Origin: an uncultured cyanobacterium
Lineage (GTDB): Bacteria; Acidobacteriota; Vicinamibacteria; Vicinamibacterales; UBA2999
DNA: 64,000 bases
Direction of reading: 5' to 3'
NCBI GenBank assembly: GCA_963833135.1
Contig: CAWHWW010000021.1
Span: 96,907 to 160,906, forward strand
Every line of letters begins with the position of its first letter. The stretch's first letter is position 1. This document shows, one piece after another, positions 3,863 through 46,269 of this stretch. Below the pieces are notes generated by a model. That model was not told the DNA's origin. It made no database searches and worked only from the letters and a program-made list of their open reading frames with translations. The translations under genes were made by a program, and so were the position numbers.

Positions 3863-5767
3863 GTTGGTTTGACCTCAAATATCGCGACGGGCCGACTCTT
3901 GCCCTTCACGACGACGTCGCCGAGGGGATGGATATCATAACGCCCTTTGAGCCCGGCGCGGGTCGCCTCGCTGATGATGATCCGCGTTCCGTAGTCCTTG
4001 TTCAAGCGACTCCAGCCGGGCGCCGAGATTCACGGCATCGCCAATCACGGTGTAGCTCATGATCGTCTCCGAGCCGACGTTGCCGGCGATCATGTCGCCG
4101 GTATTGATGCCGATGCCGATGTCGAGCTGCGGCTTGCCTTCGCGCGCCCACTCCGCGTTCATCTCGTTCAGCGTCCCGATCATCGCCAGCGCCGTCTGCA
4201 CCGCATGCTCGGCATGATCCTCGTCGTCGAGCGGCGCCCCGTAGAGCGCCATGATCATGTCGCCGACGAACTTATCGACCGTGCCGCGATGCTGGAACAC
4301 GACCGCGACCATTCGCGTGAACAGCTGATTCAGCTGGGCCACCACGTCTTCAGGCGTGCCCTTCTCCGACATCGTCGTGAAGCCGCGAATGTCGGAGAAC
4401 AGCACCGTCATGTGGCGCCGCGCGCCGCCGAGGGCGGCAAGCGACGGATTGGCGACGAGCTGCTCGTAGACGTCCTTCGAGACGTAGCGGGAGAACAGCT
4501 TCTTGATCTGCCGCTTCTCGCGCCCCTCGACGAAGTACTTCCAGGCGAGGTCGCCGACGAAGGCAAAGACGAGCGCCAGCGCGGGAACGGTGAGCGGAAT
4601 CCAGGAGCCGCGCGCGAAGATTGCCAGCGACTGCCAGACGAGGATCGCCGCGGCAACGAGCGCGACCACACCGGTGAGCCACGCATTCAGGAACGCACCG
4701 GCCACGCCGACGACCGCGACCGCGCCGATCACGAGGCCGAGCGTCGTCCATCCGGGCGCGCGCGCGATCGATCGATTCGACAGGAACGCATCGACGAGAT
4801 TGGCGTGCACTTCCGGGCCGTTGATCTCGCCCTGCGGGAACGGCGTGGTGAACTCCTCGTTCAATCCTTCGGCGGTGCCGCCGACGATGACGATGCGATC
4901 CTTGAAGAGCGCGGGATCGATGCCAGGCTTCTGCCCTTCCAGGATCTGCTGCTGCGAATAGAAGACGTCGTAGAACGAGTACGACGTGAAGGTCGGCTGG
5001 CCGTTGCTGTTCTCGGCCGGACCCCGCCACGGAATCATGATCGTGCAGTTGCCGGCTTCGTCGATGCCGCGCGTTCAGCGCCGGCATGGTATTCGCCGCA
5101 GTCGCGGTCGCGACCGAAAACGACCGGATCGCGCGATCGCCGACCTGCACGATTGGCGACGAGGCGACGCACGGCGCCGTTCGAGTCGATGGTGAATAAC
5201 GAGTGTCCGATGCCGCGTGACACGCCGGCGAGCGCCGGAAAGGGCGGCGTCACGCGCGGGCGGGGCTCGACACAGCCGTCAGCCGGCAATGCGCAGGTTG
5301 AGCGCAGGCGCATCGAGGTCCTCCTTCAGCGCCCGCGACGGATCGGCCAGTTCGGCGCTCGAGGTTTCGGCGATGTGCACGACGTTGCCGGCCTTCTTCG
5401 TGGACTCAACGAGCGCCGCGTCCGACTCATCCCCGGTCCACTCGGTGTCGGCGACCATGAACTTGCGCATGTCGCGTTCGGCGAACAGCACGTCGTAGCC
5501 GATGACCTTCGCGCCGGCGGCCGACAGGTAATCGATCACGGTTGCGTGAATCAGCCGCGGCCACGGCCATCGCCCGACCAGCGGCTCCATCCGGCGCACG
5601 CTCTCGTTGTCGATGGCGACGAGGACGATGTTGGCTGCCGGAGCGGACGGGCGCGCCGTCGCGGCGACGCGAAGGTCGTAGGTCTGCAGCTCGATGTTCT
5701 GAATGAAGTCGAGGAGCCCGAGGGCGCCGGCCAGGACGGCTGCGGCGAGGGGAATGGCTCTCTGCAT
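3859..5767 (-). CDS. CHASE2-sensor class III adenylate/guanylate cyclase (frameshifted as sequenced)
   Basis: CHASE2-like N-terminus in ORF 5279..5767. TM block and cyclase core 'VLFSDIRGFTTMSE..FVGDMIMALYGAP..GINTGDMIAGNVGS' in ORF 3935..5038. The C-terminus '..VVVKGKSRPVAIFEVKPT*', read by hand in another frame, ends at 3859, and its TGA overlaps the M48 ATG. Confidence 0.85.
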
Positions 5768-11434: not shown

Positions 11435-11579
11435 CTCACTCCATCCGTCATCAATAAGCTCCTTGATGCGTGTTGCAATCGCCGCGCGATACTCAGCATG
11501 GGGACATCAGAGCCCTTGATGCTCACTCCACCGTCATCAAGAAGCTCCTTGATGCGTGTTGCAATCGCCGCGGATACTC
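11435..11579. repeat. tandem duplication of a ~60-nt unit (period 87 nt)
   Basis: 11435-11494 and 11522-11579 are identical except for one substitution and two 1-nt indels. Shared core: 'aagctccttgatgcgtgttgcaatcgccgcg'. Confidence 0.85.
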
Positions 11580-12023
11580 GACTTGGCGTCCACTGTGAAA
11601 CAGCTGGCTCACCAGCACCGATCCGTCCACGCAGATCAGGAATTCGATGGCGCGGAGTTGGGTCACGACGAGCTCACGGATTTCGGCGACGTGCCCGGCC
11701 TTCGTGAAGCGGTGCAGCACCCTCATGGGTGGTGACGGATTGATCGTGCGGCTCTTGAGGGGATTGACGGAAGGCATGGGTGGGATCACCGCATCGTCGC
11801 GCCGGGGATGCCGCCGGCCATCGAGAGGCCTATTCGCTGAGCCGCTGCCACCCCGATCAACGCACCGATTAATGCCCTTGCGATGAACATATCGACTCCG
11901 TTTCGGGACAGAATCGTATGTGGCCGTCGCACGCGAAAGCAAAATGAAAAAGTGACAGGTTTGCGGCCGCGACATTGCCAGATCAGCTTCGGGCTGCCGC
12001 AGGCAGGATGAAGGCGAATCGAG

Positions 12024-12098
12024 TGGTACCGCTACGGGGATTCGAACCCCGGTATCCTGACTGAGAATCAGGTGTCCTGACCCCTAGACGATAGCGGC
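12024..12098 (-). tRNA. tRNA-Glu (anticodon CUC)
   Basis: Hand-folded 75-nt cloverleaf on the minus strand: acceptor GCCGCUA/UAGCGGU, D-arm GUCUAGGGGUCAGGAC, anticodon stem CCUGA/UCAGG with loop UUCUCAG, T-arm CGGGG-UUCGAAU-CCCCG, encoded CCA. Confidence 0.9.
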
Positions 12099-14211: not shown

Positions 14212-14262
14212 GGGCTTACGGGCTTACGGGCTACGGGCTTGCGGGCTACGGGCTTGCGGGGG
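14212..14262. repeat. word-repeat array (GGGCTTACG / GGGCTACG / GGGCTTGCG)
   Basis: Six contiguous variant 8-9-mers fill the gap between the convergent stops at 14209 and 14265. The complementary words occur at 30060-30096. Confidence 0.9.
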
Positions 14263-14264
14263 CC

Positions 14265-16718
14265 TTACCTGTAGAGCAGATACTTCGCTCGCAGCCGGCG
14301 CCAGCGGGCTTCGTCCGCACTCCAACGCGCCGCCACCGCCGCGGGATCTTCCCCGCGCTTGACGCGTTCCAACGGATCCGCCGTCCCAAACAATCGCCAC
14401 GTCGTCGAGAAATCGTACTTCTCCCCGAACATCGACGAGAGCGCCGCCGCGATCTCGAGTCCGACGCGCACGGGCGGCAGCGAGGCTCGACTCGTGATCA
14501 CCATGAACACGCCCTGGCATTCTTCGTTCGCGTACTTGCTCGACTTCGGCGTGAAGGTGATCGGATAGAAGCGAATGCCCGGCAGCTTCCTCGCGTTGAG
14601 CGCAGCCGAGAGCCGCGGCCCGTCGATCCACGGCGCGCCGAAGTGTTCGAACGGCTGATCGGTGCCGCGGCCGACCGAGACGTTCGAGTACTCGATCGCG
14701 CCGATGCCCGGATAGAGCGTCGCCTGGTTGAGGTTGCGCATGTTCGGCGAGGGATTGATCCACGCCAGGCCGGTATCGTCGTACCAATAATCGCGCTTCC
14801 AGTTTTCCATGCCGATCACCGTCAAGTCCGCATTGATCTTCCGCTCGTCGTTGTACAACCTCGCCAGCTCGCCCATCGTCATACCGTGCCGGACCGGCAT
14901 CGGCATGTAGCCGATGAACGTGTTCGGCGATTCTCCCGGACCAGGCTCGCGCGACAGCGGCCCTTCGATCTGCCAGCCGTTAATCGGATTCGGACGATCG
15001 AGCACGACCACCGCGAGACGCCGCTTCGCGGCTTCTTCCATCGCGTAGCCCATCGCGAGCTGGTAGGTGTAGAAGCGGACGCCGACGTCCTGGAGGTCGA
15101 TTACCAGCGCGTCGATGCCGTCGAGAGAACCTTCACGCGGCCGGCCGGTGCCGCCCTTGTAGAACAGCGAGTGGATCGGCAGACCGGTACGGGCGTCCTT
15201 TTCGGCCGGGACATCCGCATCGAGCACGCCGCGGATCCCGTGCTCGGGACTGAAGAGCGACACGAGTGTCACGCCCGGCGCCGAGTGCAACAGATCGATC
15301 GTCGATTGTCCTTCTCTCGATCGGCCGGTATGGTTGGTGATCAATCCGATTTTTTTGCCGCGAAGCTGCTTGAATCCATCGCGCGCGAGGACATCGATTC
15401 CGGCAAGGACGGGTGGTGTCGGGCTTGAGCCGGATTGGAGCCTGGCAGCGGGATCAATCTGCCTAAAGGCAGACACCACCCGCGCGCCATCTGATGTCAA
15501 AGCCGCTGCCGCCACCGTCGCGATCCTGCTGCGTAACACCCCGACGTCGCCCGTGCCGTCTGGATGCAGGCGACTCGATAAGAAGATCACGTACGAGTTC
15601 GACGCCGGATCGATCCACAAGCTCGTTCCGGTGAATCCCGTATGGCCGTACGACGTCCCCGCCGGAAACAGGTCGCCGCGGTTGCTCGAATACGACGTGT
15701 CGATATCCCAGCCAAGACCACGAACGCTCGTCATGCCCGCGGGGGTTTGCGGCGACGTCATGGCCGTCACCGTTGCCGCCGACAGCACACGCAGTCCTCC
15801 TTCGCGCGATGCGCTTCGGAGGACAGGGGTTCCGAGCCGGCCTCTCCCCAGCAGCATTTGCGCGAATCGCTGGAGATCGCGCGCGGTGCTGAAGAGGCCT
15901 GCATGACCGGCGATGCCGCCCATTCGCCGCGCGGTTGGATCGTGAACGACGCCACGTAGCGGCATCGCATCGGGGCGCTTGCAGGGCCATGCGTCCTGCT
16001 CCGCGCATCGCTCGGTCGGCGCGATCCGCGGCAGCAAGGACTTCGGTGGCAGGAACCCGGTCTCCGTCATGCCGAGCGGCTCGAAGACGCGCGCTTTCAG
16101 ATACGCATCGAGCGTCTGGCCGGTGATGCGCTGGACGATGTCACCGAGCAGAAAGAAGTTGATGTCGCTGTAGACGAATGCCTCGCCGGGAGCGGATGCC
16201 GGCACTTCATCCTTCGCGAGCTCGATTGCCGCGTCGTAACCGGTCCACGGATGCAGATCGACATCGGGTCGTAACCCTGAGACATGGGTCAATAAATGGC
16301 GAACCTGGATGCCGCCTTTTCCGTAACGCTCGAACCCCGGGATGTGTGATGCGACCGCGTCGTTGAGACGCAGCCGCCCCTCCTCGACAAGCGTCATTAC
16401 TGCGGTGGTCGTCGCGACCACCTTGGTCAGCGAAGCGAGATCGAAGACCGTATCAAGAGTCATCGGCTCTTCCGCGGGCACCGTGGCGCGCAAGCCGAAC
16501 GCCTTCTCATAAACCGTTTGATCGCCGCGTCCGACGACGACAACCGCGCCGGGGGTGAGCCTGGCCGCCATCGCTTCCCGAACGAGCTCGTCGATTCGAT
16601 TGAACTGCGGGTTGGCTTGGCGCGCAATTGCGGGAATCTGGCCTGGAAGAGCGAAAACAAGAATTCCCCAAGCCGCAAGTCCCAAGCCCCAAGACCCTGG
16701 TTTTGGCGTCAATCGCAT
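14265..16718 (-). CDS. serine hydrolase (beta-lactamase family) fused to a DUF1343 / NamZ-like exo-muramidase domain
   Basis: Intact ORF 14265..16817. Likely start is the ATG at 16718 ('MRLTPKPGSWGLGLAAWGILVFAL', a signal-anchor). SxxK motif 'ASLTKVV'. C-terminal half is DUF1343-like: 'GLITNHTGR..SLFSPEHG..VIDLQDVGVRFYTY'. Confidence 0.8.
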   Translation of the reverse strand: MRLTPKPGSWGLGLAAWGILVFALPGQIPAIARQANPQFNRIDELVREAMAARLTPGAVVVVGRGDQTVYEKAFGLRATVPAEEPMTLDTVFDLASLTKVVATTTAVMTLVEEGRLRLNDAVASHIPGFERYGKGGIQVRHLLTHVSGLRPDVDLHPWTGYDAAIELAKDEVPASAPGEAFVYSDINFFLLGDIVQRITGQTLDAYLKARVFEPLGMTETGFLPPKSLLPRIAPTERCAEQDAWPCKRPDAMPLRGVVHDPTARRMGGIAGHAGLFSTARDLQRFAQMLLGRGRLGTPVLRSASREGGLRVLSAATVTAMTSPQTPAGMTSVRGLGWDIDTSYSSNRGDLFPAGTSYGHTGFTGTSLWIDPASNSYVIFLSSRLHPDGTGDVGVLRSRIATVAAAALTSDGARVVSAFRQIDPAARLQSGSSPTPPVLAGIDVLARDGFKQLRGKKIGLITNHTGRSREGQSTIDLLHSAPGVTLVSLFSPEHGIRGVLDADVPAEKDARTGLPIHSLFYKGGTGRPREGSLDGIDALVIDLQDVGVRFYTYQLAMGYAMEEAAKRRLAVVVLDRPNPINGWQIEGPLSREPGPGESPNTFIGYMPMPVRHGMTMGELARLYNDERKINADLTVIGMENWKRDYWYDDTGLAWINPSPNMRNLNQATLYPGIGAIEYSNVSVGRGTDQPFEHFGAPWIDGPRLSAALNARKLPGIRFYPITFTPKSSKYANEECQGVFMVITSRASLPPVRVGLEIAAALSSMFGEKYDFSTTWRLFGTADPLERVKRGEDPAAVAARWSADEARWRRLRAKYLLYR
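16667..16696. repeat. 30-nt word element (CCCCAAGCC type), left partner of an inverted pair
   Basis: Its reverse complement matches 19961-19990 at 29 of 30 positions. It lies inside codons ~8-17 of the hydrolase-NamZ gene. Confidence 0.9.
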
Positions 16719-16768: not shown

Positions 16769-17722
16769 ATGCGTGATTCGAAGACGTTCCTTTCGGCGGT
16801 GGCGCTCGTCGCCGCATTGGTCGTGTCGGCGCTGCCGGCGGCGGCCCAGACCGGCCGTATCGGCGGGCAGGTCAAGGACGCCCAGAGTGGCCAGCCGCTC
16901 AAGGGCGCCACGATTACGGCTGAAAACCCGCAGGCGTCGCCTTCGTCGTTTACCGCGACGACCGACGACAAGGGCCGTTACTCGATCATCGGCCTCAAGA
17001 CCGGCACGTGGAAGGTGACCGCGGTCGCCCCCGGCTTCCAGGCCTCGTCGGGCCAGGTGCCGGTCCGCAGCCTCGGCGCCCCGATGCCTCCGGTCGACTT
17101 CGCGCTGGCCGCCGGCGCTTCAGGTCCCACCGGCGCGCTTGCCGGTGTCAACACCAAGGAGCTCCAGGGCGAACTGCAGAAGGCCATCGACATGGCGAAC
17201 TCGGGCCAGCTCGATGCGGCGATCACGGCGTACGAAACGATCCTGGCCAAGACGCCGGCACTCACGATGATCCACGGGCAGATCGCCCAGGTGAAGCGCC
17301 TGAAGAAGGACTACGACGGCGCCATCGCTTCGTACCAGAAAGTGCTCGCCGCCGATCCGAACAACGACAAGGCGAAGATCGAAATCGGCATGACCTACCT
17401 CGAGAAAGGCGACTTCGCGAACGCCGAAAAGTCGCTGCTCGAAGTGGCGTCCTCGGTCAACGCGAGCCGCGAGGTGTTCTACAACCTCGGCGAAGTGAAG
17501 TTCGCGAAGGGCGAGACCGACGAGGCCGTGAAGTACTACGAGCGCGCCGCGCAGATGGACGCGGCGTGGGCCAAGCCGCTCTTCAAGCTCGGTCTCGCGA
17601 AGCTGCAGAAGGCCGACACCGCCGGCGCGATCGAATACATGAACAAGGTGATCGCCGCCGAACCGAACTCCGCTGAAGCCGCGCAGGCCAAGGCGTTGAT
17701 CGAGCAGCTGAAGAAAGGGTAG
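16769..17722 (+). CDS. secreted carboxypeptidase-regulatory-like plus TPR repeat protein
   Basis: Track ORF 16742..17722. ATG at 16769 is preceded by 'aagggaga'. Signal peptide 'ALVVSALPAAAQ'; the C-terminal half has TPR-like repeats. Confidence 0.75.
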   Translation: MRDSKTFLSAVALVAALVVSALPAAAQTGRIGGQVKDAQSGQPLKGATITAENPQASPSSFTATTDDKGRYSIIGLKTGTWKVTAVAPGFQASSGQVPVRSLGAPMPPVDFALAAGASGPTGALAGVNTKELQGELQKAIDMANSGQLDAAITAYETILAKTPALTMIHGQIAQVKRLKKDYDGAIASYQKVLAADPNNDKAKIEIGMTYLEKGDFANAEKSLLEVASSVNASREVFYNLGEVKFAKGETDEAVKYYERAAQMDAAWAKPLFKLGLAKLQKADTAGAIEYMNKVIAAEPNSAEAAQAKALIEQLKKG

Positions 17723-17798
17723 TAGCCAGATGCCAGTAGCCGGTAGCCAGAAAGACAAGAGCTCTTCTGGCTACTGGCTACTGGCTTCTGGCTACTGG
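17722..17798. repeat. word-repeat palindrome (GCCAGTAGC words); putative bidirectional terminator hairpin
   Basis: Left arm 17722-17752 and right arm 17765-17798 are complementary. Together they fill the whole gap between the convergent stops at 17722 and 17799. Confidence 0.85.
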
Positions 17799-20069
17799 TT
17801 ACTTCCGTTTTTCCGCCTCCGCAATGAGCTGATTGATGTTCGGGTAAGAAGGCTCGATCGATCGGGCCTTCTTCCACATCTCCAGCGCCTCGGGAAACTT
17901 TCCTTCCCTCGCCAGCAGCACGCCCTTCACGACCCACGGAAACGCGTAATTCGGCTCGACGGCGGTCGCCTTGTTCAAGGCATCGCGCGCGACGACGGTG
18001 TTGCCGCGCTCGGCTTCGAGCCAGCCCTTGGCGGCGTGATTCGAGGCCGCGTCCGGGAACATGTCGAGACTGACGATGTACTCGTCCTGCGCCTTCTTCA
18101 GCACCTCGCCTGCCTGTCCAGGCAATTCGACGATGCCGAAACTCACGAGCACCTCGGCTGCCTTGACGCGCACGACGCGGGCTTCGTCGCCGAGTCGCGC
18201 CACGATGGGCATGAGCGATCGTTCCCTGTCGCCGATCGATCCGAGAGACGCGATCGCGGAGGCGCGGACCGCGGGCTCGGGGTCAGACGCGGCGCCAATG
18301 AGAGCGTTCACGATGGCCGGGGTCACTTCTGGGGCCGTTCGACGGACGTTCTCCGATCGTTCTACGGTCGTTCTACGATCGTCGGTTCCAGGCGCAGTCG
18401 GCCGTAGAACGTTCGTAGAACCTGTCGTAGAACCATCGTCGAACGACGTCTGTGTTGGCGAACTGGCGCTCGTCGTGCCGCCAGAGCGCCATTCAGAAAC
18501 CAGCCGTCCAATGTAGTCAGCGGCGCTCGCGCGAACCAGGAAGCCCTGCGATCGATCGACCGCCAGCTTCGCCAGCGCCGGGCAGCGTCGTCGCATCGCC
18601 CGAACCGGCGCGATACATGGTGTCGGCGAGCGACACCGCCTGCGCGCGGCGTTCGCCGTCGCCCCACCACGCCGTCATCTGCTTCGCCGCCCACTCGGGC
18701 GTTCGATCGTCGTGACAGGTCGTGCACGCGTTCGGGATACCGAACTGCGCGGTGTTCTCCGGCACCGGCGGCTGGAACGTGTGATCGCGACGGCGAATCA
18801 GCAGCCGCCAGTTCACGTCGCTCATGTGGCAGCCGATGCAGCGCGATCCGGCAGAGTCGGGGGCATGAAACGTGTGGGCTTCCAAGCCGGCGCCAGTAAA
18901 CGACGGCTTGAGGTTCGCCGGGTTCCCGGTTCCCGGTTCCCGGCACGTCGGCGCCGAGTGGCATTGCGTGCAGAGCCCGTCGCCGTTGCGGCCCTGGTTG
19001 ATGTTCACCTTCAGCGAGAACTCGTTGCGCGATCCGTGAGCGACGTGGCAGTTCGTGCATGCGATCGCGCCGGCCTTGAAGCAGCCGCTGAGCGTCAACG
19101 CCTGCGGGCGGTTGAAGCGATTCGGGCGGCCGTCGGGCCAGAATTCGCCCTGCAGATCGTTCTCGGGAAGCGGATCGCTGATGAGGAACGGCGTCGCGTA
19201 ATCAGAATAGTGATCGCCGCCCTTGAAGCCGACGAAAACGTTGCGCTTGTTGCCGTGGCAGTAGGCGCAGGTGTCGTAGATCCGCCGCGGCTGCGAGCTC
19301 TTCACCGACAAGATCTTGAGGATGTCGCTCAGCTGGCGGTTCTTCGAGCTGTTGTCGTACTTCGGCTTCGATGCCGGATCCTTCTCCCACGCGTCCATCA
19401 ACGCAACATGCTGGCGGCCAGGCCCATGACACGCTTCGCAGCCGATGCCCATCTCGCGTCCACGTCGACTTGTACTTTCTCTCGGCGACGTCGTAGCCCT
19501 GGACGAGGTTGGTGCCGTGGCAGTTGAAACAGTTGGAATTCCAGATCTGACGGAACTGGTGCGCGCCTTCCGGTACCGACGTGATCTCCTTCCAGTCGAT
19601 CCAGCGCTTCGTGCCGACATGCCAGAACACCGGCAGCACGTAGATTCGTCCGTCGGGCAGCGTCGACAGATAGCCCTGATATCGCTTGGCACCGAGCGTG
19701 TAGTCGACGGTGAAGGTTTCCGGCGCGCGATCGCCGAAGGCAATCGACAACGGACGGCTTGCCGTCCTTCGTGCCGAACGTGTACGCGCGATCGTGATCG
19801 GCGAACTTCGTCCCTTCGCGGAAGTCACCAATCACGGTGGCTTCCGCGATCGGCTTGGTCATCTTGATGTGCAGCGAGTTCTTCCACTGCGTGTGCTCGA
19901 CGTCGTGACACTTCGCGCAGGCGGCGGATCCCAGATACTCGCTGTTAACCTGCGTGGGAAGGTCTTGGGGCTTGGGACTTGGGGCTTGGGACTGCTCGTT
20001 GGCGCGGACGGCCAGCGTCAGCAGCAAGAGCAAGAGCGCCGCGCTTACCAGGCTCGCACCGCGGGTCAT
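17799..20069 (-). CDS. octahaem c-type cytochrome fused to HEAT/TPR repeats (frameshifted as sequenced)
   Basis: Colinear pieces are ORFs 19398..20132, 19202..19831, 18517..19743 and 17799..18596. Eight CxxCH motifs: CAKCH, CFNCH, CEACH, CAYCH, CTNCH, CTQCH, CIGCH, CTTCH. Best start is the ATG at 20069 ('MTRGASLVSAALLLLLLTLAVRA'). Confidence 0.8.
18336..18448. repeat. word-repeat palindrome (CGTTCTACG words) inside a coding region
   Basis: Arms 18336-18385 and 18399-18448 are imperfectly complementary. The element is read in frame as the linker 'SSPTQTSFDDGSTTGSTNVLRPTAPGTDDRRTTVERSENVRR' of ORF 17799..18596. Confidence 0.85.
19961..19990. repeat. 30-nt word element (GGGGCTTGG type), right partner of an inverted pair
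   Basis: 'ggtcttggggcttgggacttggggcttggg'. Encodes 'SQAPSPKPQDLP' just after the cytochrome signal peptide. Confidence 0.9.
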
Positions 20070-20446: not shown

Positions 20447-21070
20447 GGTTCCACGGTTCCGCAGTTCCAGGGTTCCACGGTTAGGTTCTGTTGGGTTATG
20501 GGTTCTTCTTCGGACGCGGCGGATCGGGCGTTGATTCCAGATGCTGAATCAGACCAGCCGCGGCCTTAAGCGCCTCCGCGAATGTAGTGTTCCTCGAGAA
20601 GCAATTCGTCCTCAGTGAGCAGTCGTCGATCTCTTGCGTCGACGAGGTGATTCAACACCTCAGTGTTCGGAACCTCGCGCGATTCGAACAAAGCGCGCGA
20701 ATTCCTTGTTGCCGAAGCGGCCAAATCCCTCCGCGATGTTTGCCGGAGCAGACCGAGCCGCCTCGCGCAACTGCTCGCACAGTCTGAAGTCGCGTTTCAC
20801 GTTCGGCCGTTCCAGGAGCATATACACGCGCAGCTTCACCGATTCCGCGCGTTGCCCGCGACGATCTCCCGGAAGTCCTTCCATCCAGCCATGTCGTTGA
20901 ATGAAAGCAACAGCGAAGCCGCGAATAGACTCGCCAATTCCCGAGAGAAATGAGGGACCGATGATCTCGGTCGTTCAAAAATTGCGATGCAAGCTGCGTC
21001 ACTGGTGCGCACATCTTGCGAACATTGAACCCGGCAGAACCAAACCGTGGAACTGTGGAACCGTGGAACC
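20447..21070. mobile_element. rRNA-IVS-like cassette: four-helix-bundle gene bracketed by ~40-nt inverted word repeats (GGTTCCACG)
   Basis: The reverse complement of 20447-20490 aligns with 21035-21070: 'cagaacc[t/a]aaccgtggaac...ggaaccgtggaacc', with one word fewer on the right. Confidence 0.5.
20496..20892 (-). CDS. four-helix-bundle protein (23S rRNA intervening-sequence protein family; frameshifted)
   Basis: 'MAGWKDFREIVA..', then 'QRAESVKLRVYMLLE..LCEQLREAARSAPANIAEGFGRFGNKEFARFVRIARGS' (ORF 20660..20884), then 'EVLNHLVDARDRRLLTEDELLLEEHY' and '..LIQHLESTPDPPRPKKNP*' in other frames. Confidence 0.75.
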
Positions 21071-22084: not shown

Positions 22085-22149
22085 GCACCTGGCACCTGGC
22101 ACCGGCACCCCTGCACCCTTGCACCCCTGCACCCCTGCACCCCTGCACC
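22085..22149. repeat. word-repeat array (GGCACCT then CTGCACCC words)
   Basis: 'gcacctggcacctggcaccggcacccctgcacccttgcacccctgcacccctgcacccctgcacc'. Confidence 0.9.
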
Positions 22150-27582: not shown

Positions 27583-27948
27583 TCAAGCGTTCCAGGGTTC
27601 CAGGAGTTCCAGAAGTTCCACGGTTTGGTCCAGGAGTTCCAGACGTTCCAGATGTTCCACGGGTGGTTCAGAACACGGTACCTGACAGAACTCAACCCTT
27701 GGAACCCCTGGAACCACTGGAACCCTGGAACGATCTTTATCGGCGAGCTGCATGACCCGATAGACATTGAGGACACCGGCGGCAAGTCCGAGAAAAAACC
27801 CGACGAACGCGAGCCAGGGCTTCGTGCCGAGCGCCCCGTCCAGCCAATAACCCGCGGCAAAGCCGATCACCAGCGCAAACACGAACGACAAGCCGATCGT
27901 GCTGAGCTGCCCGATGAGCTGCAACGTCGTCGGGGATGTCCGCTCCAT
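27583..27948 (-). CDS. AtpZ/AtpI-family protein (3' end uncertain; the ORF tail runs through a repeat)
   Basis: 'LQLIGQLSTIGLSFVFALVIGFAAGYWLDGALGTKPWLAFVGFFLGLAAGVLNVYR'. The last ~50 codons are translation of the 27589-27731 word palindrome. Confidence 0.6.
   Translation of the reverse strand: MERTSPTTLQLIGQLSTIGLSFVFALVIGFAAGYWLDGALGTKPWLAFVGFFLGLAAGVLNVYRVMQLADKDRSRVPVVPGVPRVEFCQVPCSEPPVEHLERLELLDQTVELLELLEPWNA
27589..27731. repeat. word-repeat palindrome (GTTCCAGG words)
   Basis: The left arm (27589-27662) has 8 variant GTTCCAG/GTTCCAC words. The right arm (27697-27731) has complementary CTGGAAC words. Confidence 0.9.
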
Positions 27949-29935: not shown

Positions 29936-30096
29936 GGTCTTACGGGCTACGGGCTACGGGCTTGCGGAAGACAGGGTCTTGCGGGCTTGCACGGGCTTGC
30001 GGAAGACAGGGTCTTTGCGGGCTTGCGGGCGACGGGCTGCGGCAAATTCGTAGTGCGTGCCTCAAGCCCGTAGCCCGTTAGCCCGTTAGACCCGTG
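29936..30096. repeat. word-repeat palindrome (ACGGGCT / CTTGCGGGC words) containing a 35-nt tandem duplication
   Basis: Forward words at 29936-30045 include a direct repeat, 29956-29990 and 29991-30026. Complementary words 'aagcccgtagcccgttagcccgttagacccgt' lie at 30060-30096. Confidence 0.9.
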
Positions 30097-31248: not shown

Positions 31249-31339
31249 GGTGCGTACGGTGCGTACGTGCGTACGGTGCGTACCGTGCGTAGAGTGCCGC
31301 GCGCTTAGGCACATCACGCACAGTACGCACGGTACGCAC
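31249..31339. repeat. word-repeat palindrome (GTGCGTAC words)
   Basis: Left arm 31249-31298 and right arm 31306-31339 surround the loop 'gcgcgc'. The element abuts the ATG at 31341. Confidence 0.9.
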
Positions 31340-33056: not shown

Positions 33057-33122
33057 GGACACGTGCCTTCGTGCCTGGAGTGCACCGTACGCGCATTACG
33101 CACTGTACGCACCGTACGCACT
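33026..33122. repeat. word-repeat palindrome (GTGCGTAC words), second locus
   Basis: Left arm 33026-33053 and right arm 33080-33122. It spans the gap between the stop at 33056 and the rseP stop at 33123. Confidence 0.9.
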
Positions 33123-34464: not shown

Positions 34465-35632
34465 TGTCTTGATTCTAACTCTTGAGCCAGCTCGGCCGCT
34501 TGCATCCTGGCCCAGGCGTCGACGCGGCGGACATCCGACAGGGTCACAGGCGGGCTCAGGCTCATGGGCATCCATCGTCTGCGCAATCACTTGCGGGATG
34601 TGCGTGAATCCAAGCCGGCCTTCCAGAAAAGACGACACCGCGACCTCGTTGGCCGCGTTCAACACGATCGGCAGGCTCCGCTCCGCTTCGAGGGCGCGGT
34701 AGGCCAGGCGCAGGCACGGAAAATCGTCCCACGCCGGCTCGTGAAACTCGAGGGCTTTCTGCTTCGTGAGATCGAGAAACGGCACCGGCGCGTCCCAGCG
34801 ATCGGGATACGCGAAGGCGTATTGAATCGGCAGGCGCATGTCGGTGATGCCCATCTGCGCGATGATCGATCCGTCCTTCAACTCGACCATCGAGTGCACG
34901 ATCGACTGCGGGTGAACAACGACGTCGATCTGCGAGGCGGGCACGCCAAACAGCCAATGCGCCTCGATCACCTCCAGCCCCTTGTTCATCAGTGTGGCCG
35001 AATCGATGGTGATCTTCGGGCCCATCTGCCAGGTCGGATGCTTCAACGCGTCGGCGGCGGTGACCCTGGCCAGCTCGCTCAGCGACCTGCCGCGAAACGG
35101 GCCGCCGGAGGCAGTGAGAATCAGCCGCCGCAGTTCCCCGCTGGCGCGGCCGTGCAGGCACTGATGGATCGCGTTGTGCTCGCTGTCGACCGGTAGCACC
35201 GCGACGCCTTTCTTGCGCGCGGCATCCATGACGAGGCCGCCCGCCATGACGAGCACTTCCTTGTTCGCGAGGGCGATGGTCTTGCCCGCATCGATCGCGC
35301 ACAGCACCGCGTCGAGCGCTGCCGTTCCTGACGACGCGCACAAGACGATGTCGACGTCGGGGTGCGAAGCGATCTCGCACAGGCCCTCGTTGCCGACACC
35401 GGAGATCTTCGCCCGGCGATCCACCGAGCGCGGCGCGCAGCTTGTCCATCGCCTCGCCGGTGGCCATCGCCACCGCACGCGGCCGGAACTCGAGGATCTG
35501 CTTCACCATCGCCGCGACGTTGGTCGCCGCGGCGATCGCGACGACCTCGACGCGATCGCGATGCGTCCGCGCCACATCGAGCGCGCTCGTACCGATCGAG
35601 CCCGTCGAGCCGAGAATGGCGATGCGCTTCAT
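34461..35632 (-). CDS. dxr: 1-deoxy-D-xylulose-5-phosphate reductoisomerase (frameshifted)
   Basis: 'MKRIAILGSTGSIGTSALDV' (ORF 34562..35647), then '..LANKEVLVMAG..DSEHNAIHQCL..HPTWQMGPKITIDSATLMNKGLEVIEAH' (ORF 33631..35478). The tail '..DAWARMQAAELAQELESRQ*' was read by hand. Confidence 0.9.
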
Positions 35633-35640
35633 GTCCAGAA

Positions 35641-35886
35641 GATCCACAGATTACACGGATTACACCGATGCGCAGTCGACCCGTCCGCCGGGCTTCGCCC
35701 GGCAACGGACAGGTCATGCGGTGGCGGATGAAAGACCACTGCAGCGATACGGCAGAACTCAGCTGTCTTTCATCCGCCGCCGCATGGCCTGTCCACGCCG
35801 ACCGAAGGTCGGCGCGGGTCGACTTGCAGCTCTGTACGCGCATCGCGTTCGTCGAATCCGTGTAATCCGTGTAATCCGTGGATGAC
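35641..35886. mobile_element. MITE-like structured element, copy 1 (TIRs ATCCACRGATTACACGGATTACAC; ~185-nt multi-hairpin core)
   Basis: The left end (35641-35667) matches the reverse complement of the right end (35853-35886) at ~27/30. In the core, 'tgcggtggcggatgaaagac' pairs with 'gtctttcatccgccgccgca', and there are local hairpins ccggg-cttcg-cccgg and cgccgacc-gaa-ggtcggcg. It fills the whole cdsA-dxr gap. Confidence 0.55.
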
Positions 35887-36669: not shown

Positions 36670-36691
36670 GGGGGCTTGGGGCTTGGGGCTG
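36670..36691. repeat. word-repeat array (GGGGCTTGG)
   Basis: 'gggggcttggggcttggggctg', between the uppS stop and the cdsA start. Confidence 0.8.
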
Positions 36692-41073: not shown

Positions 41074-41080
41074 CGACGTT

Positions 41081-41130
41081 CAGAACCTCAGAACCTCAAG
41101 ACCCCAGGACCTCAAGCCCTCAAGACCTCA
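41081..41130. repeat. word-repeat array (CAGAACCTCAAG variants)
   Basis: 'cagaacctcagaacctcaagaccccaggacctcaagccctcaagacctca', between the truA start and the pyrE stop. Confidence 0.85.
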
Positions 41131-44364: not shown

Positions 44365-45393
44365 CCGTTCTCGGCCTGCGGGCGCGCGGCCATCGCGCCG
44401 TGCTCGTCGCGCATCGCGAAGGCGAATTGTTCCGGCGCGCCTCCGAGGGGCCGGACCTGGTGCCGCTCGCCCCGATGAACGAGATCGATCTCGCCGCCGC
44501 GTGGAAGCTCTCGAAGATCATCAAGCAGTCGAAGCCGGCCATCGTTCACGCGCACGACCCGCACGCCGTGTCGATGGCGGCGCTGGCGCTGTCGTTCAGC
44601 GCGCCCGACCCGCGGCCGAAACTGATCGCGTCGCGACGCGTCGACTTCCATCTGCAGTCGCATGCCTTCTCGCAGTGGAAGCACCGGCAGATGGACGGGT
44701 TCATCGCCGCCTCGCACGCGATCAAGGACATCCTCGTGTCCGACGGCATCCCGGCCGCGCGCATCGAGGTCGTGCATGACGGCATCGATGTGGAAAAGAT
44801 CCGGCATCGGCCGGTGATCGACCTGCACACGGAATACTGGCTGCCCCACGGCGTGCCGGTCATCGTGAATGTCGGCGCGCTGGTCGGCCATAAGGGCCAG
44901 AAGTACTTGATCGATGCGATGCCGCTGGTGCTGCGCGAGGTGCCCGACGCGCACTTGATCATCTTCGGTGAAGGCGAACTGCGCGCGCCGCTCGAGAAGC
45001 AGGTCAAGCAGCTGTCGCTCGCCAAGCGCGTGCTGCTGCCGGGGTTTCGGGAAGATGTGATGTCGCTGATGAAGTCCGCGGATCTGTTCGTGATGAGCTC
45101 GGTGACCGAGGGCCTCGGATCCGCCGTGCTCGACGCGATGGCGATGGGCCACGCGGTGGTCGGCACGACGGCGGGCGGCATTCCTGAGGCGGTCGTCCAC
45201 GAGGAAACGGGGGTGCTGGTCGAGCCCGCGGATGCGAAGGCGCTCGCCGCCGCGATCGTGCGGTTGCTCAAGGACGGCGAGCTGCGGAAACAGTTCGGCG
45301 AGGCCGGCCGCGCGCGGGTCGACCGAGCACTTCGGCGTCGATCGACTGGTTGAGGGAACGCTCGAGGCTTATCGGAAGATCGCCTCGCGCTGA
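44301..45393 (+). CDS. family 4 (GT-B) glycosyltransferase (frameshifted near 45320)
   Basis: GTG at 44301, in the frame of ORF 43734..45353 ('MFALHIDTARTWRGGQQQVL..SSVTEGLGSAVLDAMAMGHAVVGTTAGGIPE'). The tail '..EHFGVDRLVEGTLEAYRKIASR*', read by hand, ends at 45393. Confidence 0.8.
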
Positions 45394-45399
45394 TCTTCT

Positions 45400-45600
45400 T
45401 CATCCACGGATTTCACGGATTTCACGGATAACGGCGCGGACGGTTGCTCGCGCGTCGCTCGCGACGCGTCAGCAACGAATACGGAAACGAGTCGTGTCTG
45501 GTGCGGACTCGTTCCGCGACTCGCTGCTGACGTGCGGCCGGCCGAAGGCCGGCCAGCGAGCAACCGGTGAATCCGTGAATCGGTGTAATCCGTGGATGAC
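45400..45600. mobile_element. MITE-like structured element, copy 2 (TIRs TCATCCACGGATT..; ~130-nt multi-hairpin core)
   Basis: The left end 'tcatccacggatttcacggatttcacgg' matches the reverse complement of the right end 'tcatccacggattacaccgattcacgg'. The core has an outer stem ggttgctcgc/gcgagcaacc and hairpins cggaaacgagtc..gactcgttccg and ggccggcc-gaa-ggccggcc. Confidence 0.55.
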
Positions 45601-45604
45601 TCGA

Positions 45605-46269
45605 TCAGGCGGGCCGCTGCGTCGCCAGCCAGTCGGCGAAGTCCGCGTGGCCCTTCTCGCGCGCGAGATCGATCGCGCTTCTTGCCGTCGTCGTTCGGCA
45701 GCGACGGATCAGCGCCATGCGCGATGCAGCAACTCGGCGAGCGCGCGATTCGCTTTCGTCGCCGGCTTCATGAATCGGCCCGGAAGCCTGCCTGCTGCTG
45801 CGCGTTCGGATCGGCGCCCGCTTCGAGCACAGCTTTCACGATTTCGAGTTTTCCGCCGGCGACGGCGGCGTGCAGCGCCGCGACCTTCAGCGCGTTCTTT
45901 GCGGCAGCGTTCACATCGGCGCCAGCCGCGATCAACGCCTTGACGGCGGCGGGCTGACCGAAGAATGCCGCGAGGGCGACGGGCGTGAATCCGTCGGGCG
46001 CGTGCTCAGAGACACGCGCGGGGCTGCTCTTCAGGATCTCCTCGATGCGATCGACCTTGCCGAGCACGCTGGCTTCGAAGATGTCGACCGGCGCGCCGAG
46101 CTCGACGAGCGCGTTCACCACATCCGGCTTCATGTTGTAGGCGGCCGACGAGGATCGCCGAGGCGCCGCTCGCATCGCGCGCCTGTTTCAGCGACGGGTT
46201 CTGTTGAACCAGCTGTCTGACCTCCTCGACACGGCCGGCTTTGATCGCATCGAATAGCTGCTGTTCCAT
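45605..46269 (-). CDS. ankyrin-repeat protein (frameshifted)
   Basis: ORF 46006..46269 ('MEQQLFDAIKAGRVEEVRQLV') joins ORF 45768..46175 ('GFTPVALAAFFGQPAAVKALIAAGADVNA..ALHAAVAGGKLEIVKAVLEAGADPN'). The hand-read tail is '..WLATQRPA*'. Confidence 0.8.

Follow-up and report, generated by a model that had tools for sequence, protein, structure and literature searches.

What occupies the spacer between a GT4 glycosyltransferase gene and an ankyrin-repeat gene in an uncultured member of the Vicinamibacterales (Acidobacteriota), and how did it come to be there? The spacer lies in a 64,000-nt stretch of contig CAWHWW010000021.1 (assembly GCA_963833135.1), hereafter the window, to which all coordinates refer unless another locus (L numbers) is named. 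Positions 45400-45599 form a 200-bp element with inverted ends, each consisting of three tandem 9-mers (CACGGATTN). A first-pass annotation of this DNA had described it as the second copy of a family resembling MITEs (miniature transposable elements with inverted repeats). On balance, we favor the interpretation that this segment (copy 2) is a non-autonomous copy, lacking an open reading frame (ORF), of a selfish foldback family whose long relatives carry a gene for a predicted GxxExxY nuclease.

Anatomy of the element and extent of its family

The 13-mer TCATCCACGGATT, previously noticed at the two ends of copy 2 and as the right terminus of copy 1, was recovered at all three places, namely 45400-45412 on the forward strand and 45587-45599 and 35873-35885 on the reverse strand (3 matches in the window versus 0.07 expected). 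The word CACGGATT occurs 11 times against an expectation of 2.1, with 8 of the 11 occurrences falling inside the four arrays of copies 1 and 2. At the left end (45400-45429, forward strand) the array reads TCAT-CCACGGATT-TCACGGATT-TCACGGAT, three 9-nt words with a period of 9, 2.8 copies and 100% matches. The search for inverted and tandem repeats placed the right array at 45570-45599, where the reverse strand reads TCAT-CCACGGATT-ACACCGATT-CACGGATT. Both ends therefore lie within word arrays, as had been described, but the right array is irregular, with a spacing of 8 or 9 nt and one CACCGAT word. The terminal inverted repeat (TIR) measures 22 nt and is 91% complementary.

The whole element folds into an array stem of approximately 27 pairs, followed in order by the inner stem P1, the small hairpin P2, the long hairpin P3 and the GAA-looped hairpin P4; either strand yields a four-way junction in the core, whether folded as RNA or as DNA. 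The folding energy is -122.5 kcal/mol for RNA of the forward strand (z = -9.5), and the z-scores are -12.1 for RNA of the reverse strand and -9.3 for DNA. All stems listed in the first-pass annotation were found. The pair ggttgctcgc/gcgagcaacc belongs to P1, whose arms cggttgctcgc (45441-45451) and gcgagcaaccg (45556-45566) make up an 11-nt inverted repeat with 100% complementarity that is invariant in seven homologues. In P2 (gcgtcgc-tc-gcgacgc, 45452-45467), a compensatory change from U-A to G-C affects a single pair and is found in 3 of 7 sequences. The stems cgtcagca/tgctgacg and cggaaacgagtc/gactcgttccg together constitute one bulged 27-nt arm pair (78%). P3 spans 45467-45532 with arms at 45467-45493 and 45506-45532, and compensatory changes affect 9 of its 29 pairs; it is shorter in copy 2 than in the homologues, which are extended by a AAATGAGTC..GACTCATTT tip. 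P4 (ggccggcc-gaa-ggccggcc, 45536-45554) carries a GAA triloop closed by C-G, and its stem is invariant in the seven homologues while the loop is variable.

The ORFs overlapping the element are exclusively spurious high-GC ones. At gathering level, an Rfam search of the window and 18 loci returned nothing at the element, the only matches being tRNA and TPP elsewhere. No terminator-like site (GC hairpin followed by a U tract) was detected on either strand between 45250 and 45750, and a promoter search at the element found none. A likeness to DnaA boxes was rejected by inspection: TCATCCACG agrees with TTATCCACA at 7 of 9 positions, and the repeated 9-mers do not match.

Copy 1 (35642-35883) lies in the spacer separating the stop of cdsA from the start of dxr, two genes on the reverse strand. 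It has the same termini and the same architecture as copy 2 (z = -15) and represents another core subfamily. The earlier statement that its core differs from that of copy 2, yet is equally structured, was borne out, with no BLAST similarity between the two cores and a shared architecture.

Similarity of the ends might have reflected a generally abundant word with no further family members, but the word counts exceed expectation and many members were found. The 22-nt terminus of the window elements is present in 98 metagenome contigs, mainly from soil and rhizosphere. From these contigs 64 complete elements were extracted, mostly 210-260 nt long and nearly all built from arrays and P1-P4. A scan of one-genome-per-species contigs with CACGGATTNCACGGATT gave at least 120 loci; since approximately 277 chance matches were estimated for a 16-mer in 596 Gb, single 16-mer matches carry little weight. 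Paired CACGGAT arrays, in which a forward array is followed at most 800 nt later by an inverted one, were found at 27 (strict) to 56 (relaxed) of the 120 loci listed, and the sequence between them folds into a hairpin. Among the matches listed, paired arrays occur in Verrucomicrobiota, Planctomycetota, Acidobacteriota, Bacteroidota, Ignavibacteria, Chloroflexota and Spirochaetota, and also in Alphaproteobacteria (Azospirillum, Phenylobacterium). A deltaproteobacterial metagenome-assembled genome (MAG) harbors six head-to-tail CACGGAT foldbacks of approximately 130 nt with two alternating core variants (L015, 1013-1768). The searchable literature held no paper containing the repeat strings.

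The tips of the elements show a further regularity. With ATC CGT GNN as the outward frame, a stop codon comes next at 45 of 184 unbiased ends, compared with 8-10 of 184 in the other frames, and an outward in-frame stop follows at 18 of 34 unbiased metagenome ends. An obligatory stop codon at the terminal triplet was considered and set aside as a rule, the stop being enriched and not universal. Inspection by eye often showed TAA or TGA within the arrays in the other two outward frames (uncounted; tips in L001-L218), so that the way out of many elements may be closed in all three.

Gene-bearing long forms and the GxxExxY protein

Blind clustering of ORFs at the 120 loci listed revealed one small protein family directly at the arrays. 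It corresponds to PF13366 PDDEXK_3 (E = 1e-36; 123 bits, cut-off 22) and to TIGR04256 GxxExxY protein (E = 1e-39; 135 bits, cut-off 35). In 218 motif-selected loci, eight inter-array intervals measure 380-800 nt, and each of the eight contains a GxxExxY gene and nothing else. The same arrays surround a GxxExxY gene in L143, L145, L157, L183, L201, L214 and L233. The order is array, gene, array in L112 and L093, whereas in L067 the gene is placed between two small elements. L233, a 358-kb Vicinamibacterales contig, displays an array, a module, the gene, a second copy of the module and an array. The full-length form comprises an array of about three 9-mers, a four-way-junction module, a GxxExxY gene of approximately 125-140 aa, often a second module, and the inverted array. 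Close relatives in the Vicinamibacterales carry GxxExxY genes, and where an element has the same terminus, the GxxExxY proteins it encodes are also named Vicinamibacterales.

Long forms also interrupt conserved loci in other phyla. For example, an array-GxxExxY-array unit in Verrucomicrobiota (L234, 2440-2940) separates cysH from cysD within a sulfate-assimilation operon. An identical protein occurs in 110 indexed blocks; of the 24 contigs examined, 23 share the neighborhood and the remaining one (L235) has the same arrangement. On plasmids, GxxExxY sites include the fabD|fabG junction and a position after radA. Starting from the protein, a tblastn search against plasmids supplied eight records from eight taxa. 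Two of them have strong flanking inverted arrays of the word CACAGAG (Bacteroides finegoldii and Bernardetia), two have weak arrays, including single CACGGAT and ATCCGTG words in Treponema, and one (Gemmatirosa) has a CGCGGAT mini-element just downstream of the gene. The association between GxxExxY genes and arrays is thus frequent, not universal. The only tblastn match in the window itself (4835-5032, E = 0.002) falls inside an unrelated 367-aa ORF, by eye a cyclase-type signaling protein, and was taken as chance.

The AlphaFold (AF2) model of the GxxExxY protein has a predicted local distance difference test score (pLDDT) of 87 and a predicted template modeling score (pTM) of 0.80. Its best matches among PDB structures are Cas4 SSO0001, the lambda and LHK exonucleases, MGME1 and the nuclease domains of AdnAB and RecE. 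E36, which is the glutamate of the GxxExxY motif, does not vary among 33 sequences drawn from two phyla, and neither do E86-x-K88 and Q100xxxY104; D76 is kept in at least 90% of them. We take these residues to be the motif set of RecB/Cas4-type enzymes. From model and motifs, the protein is predicted to be a RecB/Cas4-like PD-(D/E)XK nuclease. A PDB sequence search found no relative of it. There was no match in PADLOC or PHROGs either, which indicates that it is not a catalogued defense or phage protein. The family appears in a survey as 'function unknown, multiple transfers' (PMC3424549), and the searchable literature on GxxExxY/PDDEXK_3 holds only 'function unknown' listings. Whereas a transposase or TnpA(REP)-like protein had been anticipated as the partner of the termini, the protein that the arrays bracket is this predicted nuclease, and neither a transposase nor a REP-associated tyrosine transposase (RAYT; REP, repetitive extragenic palindrome).

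Conservation, turnover and competing explanations

When seven homologues of copy 2 are aligned, 98% of cells are paired, and in 11 pairs both partners have changed (18 cells). The observed value was reached in none of 500 shuffles, and slid controls gave at most one such pair. Similarly, 25 of 82 pairs are compensatory in the five orthologous elements of the copy-1 set. The copy-2 set contains two one-sided G-U changes only, and across 43 distinct elements G-U pairs make up 4.1% and 4.3% on the two strands. Watson-Crick compensation with such strand symmetry implies a constraint, or a mutational process, acting on the self-complementarity of both strands. The pattern points to a DNA hairpin or cruciform, or to transcription in either direction, which it fits better than a single functional RNA strand.

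The cdsA|dxr spacer (orthologous to window 35633-35885) shows what happens to the termini. Copy 1 is retained there, with CACGGAT words, in the window, L203, L227 and L228. All array words in L230 are CNCAGAGA, around a core that aligns with those of the other lineages and has the same architecture. L231 and L232 carry arrays of GGTTCCA / TGGAAC words, and in L229 a lone TGGAAC array is left as a remnant. Elsewhere, all six array words of L233 are CGCGGAT. Words are homogenized inside one element and different between elements, and the termini are replaceable, the same site bearing different words by lineage. Of the proposal in the first-pass annotation that selection acts on termini and fold, the part concerning stems stands, as these are kept by compensatory changes, but the termini are replaceable and one selected RNA fold is unsupported.

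Copy 2 differs in presence between close lineages. Proteins named Vicinamibacterales share 85-95% identity with the CdsA that the window encodes. In the closest long contig, L227 (CdsA 93% identical), the copy-2 site is empty and the stops of the ankyrin and GT4 genes overlap (gtcgaTTAAccg). The site is filled in the orthologues L203, L177 and L159, with flanks of 80-87% nucleotide identity, and cores 77-82% identical to copy 2 stand in unrelated flanks in L158/L204, L141, L186 and L140. Empty and filled orthologous sites, together with cores at unrelated loci, indicate that the element was gained or lost between close lineages and that its core subfamily is dispersed. The earlier suggestion that primary sequence is unselected needs revision: the core is not free to diverge, and copy 2 belongs to a subfamily whose members, whether orthologous or at unrelated loci, are 77-82% identical. 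At each filled site, 0-6 nt separate the stop of the upstream gene from the TCATCC end, and in the orthologues the GT4 stop directly abuts that end.

Our favored interpretation, a selfish foldback family with nuclease-bearing long forms, would operate as follows. A short form would arise when the gene is lost, for example by recombination between two direct modules as found in L233, leaving array, module and array. In one Vicinamibacterales lineage the element entered the GT4/ankyrin spacer directly behind the GT4 stop, and it has since evolved in place with its arms staying Watson-Crick complementary. Nuclease supplied in trans by a full-length copy could act on the word arrays or on an extruded hairpin or cruciform. 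Host repair might then copy or re-join the element, in a homing-like or hairpin-mediated manner and without a target-site duplication (TSD). At the RNA level, the array duplex of approximately 27 bp may be cut by RNase III, by analogy with the intervening sequences (IVS) of 23S rRNA, which would make insertions in intergenic spacers and operons tolerable.

Known mobile elements offer partial parallels. As in MITEs, the copies are short, non-coding, dispersed in many places, bounded by TIRs and related to longer, same-ended forms with a gene, and to this extent the MITE-like label was apt. In contrast to MITEs, no TSD is seen, the long-form gene is no recognized transposase, the termini consist of tandem words and the entire element is self-complementary. 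Eukaryotic Foldback (FB) transposons likewise combine long inverted termini of short tandem repeats with a variable middle and many non-coding copies, but they are kilobase-scale and use other proteins, so that the resemblance is architectural only. PD-(D/E)XK homing endonucleases such as I-Ssp6803I provide a precedent for a small nuclease gene as a selfish insert in conserved loci (here fabD|fabG, cysH|cysD and radA). Unlike them, the foldback long form has no intron or intein context and no known defined homing site, and is bracketed by word arrays.

Several observations weigh against this interpretation. No flanking direct repeat indicative of a TSD was found in the window, L203, L177, L158, L141, L186 or L140, an exact excision footprint was not found, and the empty-site comparison spans approximately 15% nucleotide divergence. 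The GxxExxY gene is absent from the 64-kb window by tblastn. The remaining 3 of the 8 records obtained from the protein are without arrays, and only about half of the genes are array-flanked. Array words vary widely among elements, even at one orthologous site, which argues against a single conserved recognition sequence. Template-switch correction of quasi-palindromes can give compensatory changes without selection. Finally, the nuclease could merely be cargo, its binding or cutting of the arrays being something we infer.

Alternatively, the elements could be host-selected RNAs acting in cis, as an RNase III site, a stabilizer of mRNA 3' ends or a bidirectional transcription barrier, with the gene-bearing relatives incidental. 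Copy 2 does sit between convergent genes, copy 1 is retained within the cdsA-dxr operon in the window, L203, L227 and L228 with its 25 compensatory pairs, and the fold is very stable on both strands. Experiments have shown that RNase III cuts analogous IVS stems (PMC4990558). Nevertheless, we consider this explanation unlikely. The U-tract terminator, promoter and Rfam searches described above were negative, and G-U pairs are few and equal between strands, so that no transcribed strand is favored. Moreover, the close relative L227 has no insert at the copy-2 site, where L229 has a repeat of unrelated kind; homologous cores are also present at loci unrelated to this one, and a nuclease gene is found between the same ends.

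Somewhat less probable still is a palindrome grown in place, in which slippage makes the words and template switching copies the arms, with no mobility and no dedicated protein. Such a process would agree with the presence in the window of at least five further foldbacks and of solo arrays from quite different words, and with the homogenization of words within an element (CGCGGAT in L233, CNCAGAGA in L230). Changes that are Watson-Crick only and strand-symmetric, and the lack of a visible TSD, also fit. However, growth in place does not predict that the same 7-mer and extended terminus recur across phyla, with the 22-mer in 98 contigs, nor that cores 77-82% identical to copy 2 are found at unrelated loci, nor that gene-bearing forms have the same ends.

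Mobilization of a REP or REPIN element by a RAYT, a Y1 HUH transposase and the type of partner that the first-pass annotation proposed, appears very improbable. The element is a palindromic, extragenic, multi-copy repeat, and like REP/REPIN-RAYT systems the family combines such palindromes in spacers with one small, domesticated-looking gene of nuclease type. GNA triloops closed by C-G, as in P4, are unusually stable in single-stranded DNA, and a gene for a Y1_Tnp protein with a helix-turn-helix (HTH) domain stands beside the ankyrin gene in L227. But the ankyrin-side spacer of that Y1_Tnp gene (that flank only) is without CACGGAT arrays, and the gene that arrays do bracket is PDDEXK_3, a PD-(D/E)XK and not a Y1 HUH protein. 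In addition, the units are 200-260 nt with tandem-word termini and no GTAG-type head, versus REPs of 20-40 nt with a conserved 5' tetranucleotide. The RAYT-like gene occupies L227 1-334, adjoining the ankyrin gene. In the corresponding ankyrin|GT4 spacer of L229 (1013-1127) there are three 40-nt GCTAAG...CTTAGC palindromic repeats unlike copy 2, which, with the L227 Y1_Tnp gene, may be a separate REP/RAYT system of the same clade.

Least probable of all is a trans-acting small RNA, such as a CsrA-type sponge working through repeated CACGGAU (A/C-N-GGA) motifs, since, although each element has several GGA motifs, CACGGAU is similar to the CsrA consensus ACARGGAUGU from systematic evolution of ligands by exponential enrichment (SELEX) and a permissive cmscan of the element returned BTH_s1 (17.9 bits, E = 0.039), that score is far under the gathering score of 74 and was dismissed, the GGA words are base-paired within the array stem and not loop-exposed, the words of sister elements are without GGA, and no promoter or terminator was found. 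No rival explains together that gene-bearing forms share identical ends and that the word is conserved across phyla.

Relation to 23S rRNA intervening sequences and neighboring features

A sister element of the long form lies in the same window at 20447-21070, with arrays of GGTTCCAC (4.5 copies) and GTGGAACC (3.5 copies) enclosing a frameshifted four-helix-bundle gene. The corresponding ORF (20660-20884, reverse strand) matches TIGR02436, the four helix bundle / 23S rRNA IVS protein family (E = 5e-16). TIGR02436 genes are array-bracketed elsewhere too, in L109 (3778-3948) and in L033 (2363-2482 and 5741-5815), from Bacteroidales and Neomarinimicrobiota MAGs, where the words are CAGGGT, GTCGAG/GTCTAG and AACAGAT. 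The 23S IVS of Coxiella is a selfish element of 428-444 nt with a 28-bp terminal stem and an S23p ORF; it contains three tandem GACAGAT heptamers, variable in number, RNase III cuts within its stem, and its origin is unknown (PMC4990558).

The parallels with the 23S IVS of Coxiella, Leptospira and Salmonella are extensive. Both are selfish inserts of 100-750 nt whose inverted repeats form a long stem; both have an optional small ORF, ORF-less versions and a patchy distribution across phyla. Tandem short words make up the Coxiella terminus, and the sister element in our window carries the IVS protein family. In contrast to IVS, the copies described here are located between protein genes (GT4/ankyrin and cdsA/dxr) and not in helix 9, 25 or 45 of 23S rRNA, and an Rfam scan found no rRNA genes in the window. 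The CACGGAT long forms also differ in carrying a GxxExxY nuclease in place of S23p and in having the internal four-way-junction module. From the architecture shared with the Coxiella IVS, we read the window elements as an intergenic, IVS-like class in which GxxExxY and S23p are alternative genes.

A broader proposal, which we put forward tentatively and regard as possible at best, is that the arrays serve as address labels for the small oligomeric protein of the long form, which would read them and is GxxExxY here and the S23p ring protein in sister elements. There would then be a phylum-spanning, nuclease-driven class of foldbacks, with the 23S IVS as a special case and the 200-bp element as its MITE form. 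GxxExxY/PDDEXK_3 and the four-helix-bundle IVS protein are two very large families without known function (a GxxExxY profile search gave nearly 8,000 clusters), and the origin and mobility of rRNA IVS have been open since about 1990 (PMC4990558). Our results support placing both gene families within one architectural class, that of inverted tandem-word foldbacks. They likewise support the view that such foldbacks occur between ordinary genes and in operons, that they shed the gene to become 200-bp palindromes, and that they are gained and lost among close lineages. The arrays, hairpins and four-way junctions, together with the proteins, provide concrete targets for biochemistry. In soil Acidobacteria, elements of this kind fill intergenic spacers, and there they may be taken by error for structured RNAs or terminators. 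In the searchable literature (older subscription papers and database comments being outside its scope) we found no description of a link between GxxExxY, word-array foldbacks and IVS, nor an account of dispersed IVS-like or PDDEXK selfish elements.

The genes next to copy 2 were described earlier as convergent, with stops at 45393 and 45605. The location between GT4 and ankyrin genes is correct, but both reading frames are frameshifted and the ORFs are short. The GT4 stop (45391-45393, forward strand) ends 6 nt before the element and closes just a 53-aa ORF because the GT4 frame is broken near 45320-45330. The ankyrin stop (45605-45607, reverse strand) is 5 nt past the element, and Ank Pfam matches were obtained in the orthologue of L227. 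Frameshifts thus affect GT4 (45320-45330) and ankyrin (45605-46269), and also dxr (34562-35647) and the S23p-type gene (20560-20960). The GT4, ankyrin and dxr orthologues are intact in L227 and L229. The four frameshifts are probably assembly indels and not pseudogenes, and their number suggests an indel-prone assembly.

Further foldbacks made of other words are scattered through the window, at least five in number (17720-17800, 18336-18444, 27589-27731, 29941-30095 and 31249-31339), with arm words of 7-11 nt such as GTAGCCA, CGTTCTACG, GTTCCAG, TACGGGC and GTGCGTAC, among others. Counting the CACGGAT copies, their density is approximately one element per 8 kb. Solo arrays are located at 14212-14260, 16666-16697 with 19964-19993, 22085-22149, 33082-33121, 36671-36690 and 41080-41130. 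Finally, positions 11435-11612 hold 2.1 copies of a tandem repeat with an 86-nt unit (79% matches), approximately 400 nt from a tRNA gene on the reverse strand (12027-12098).

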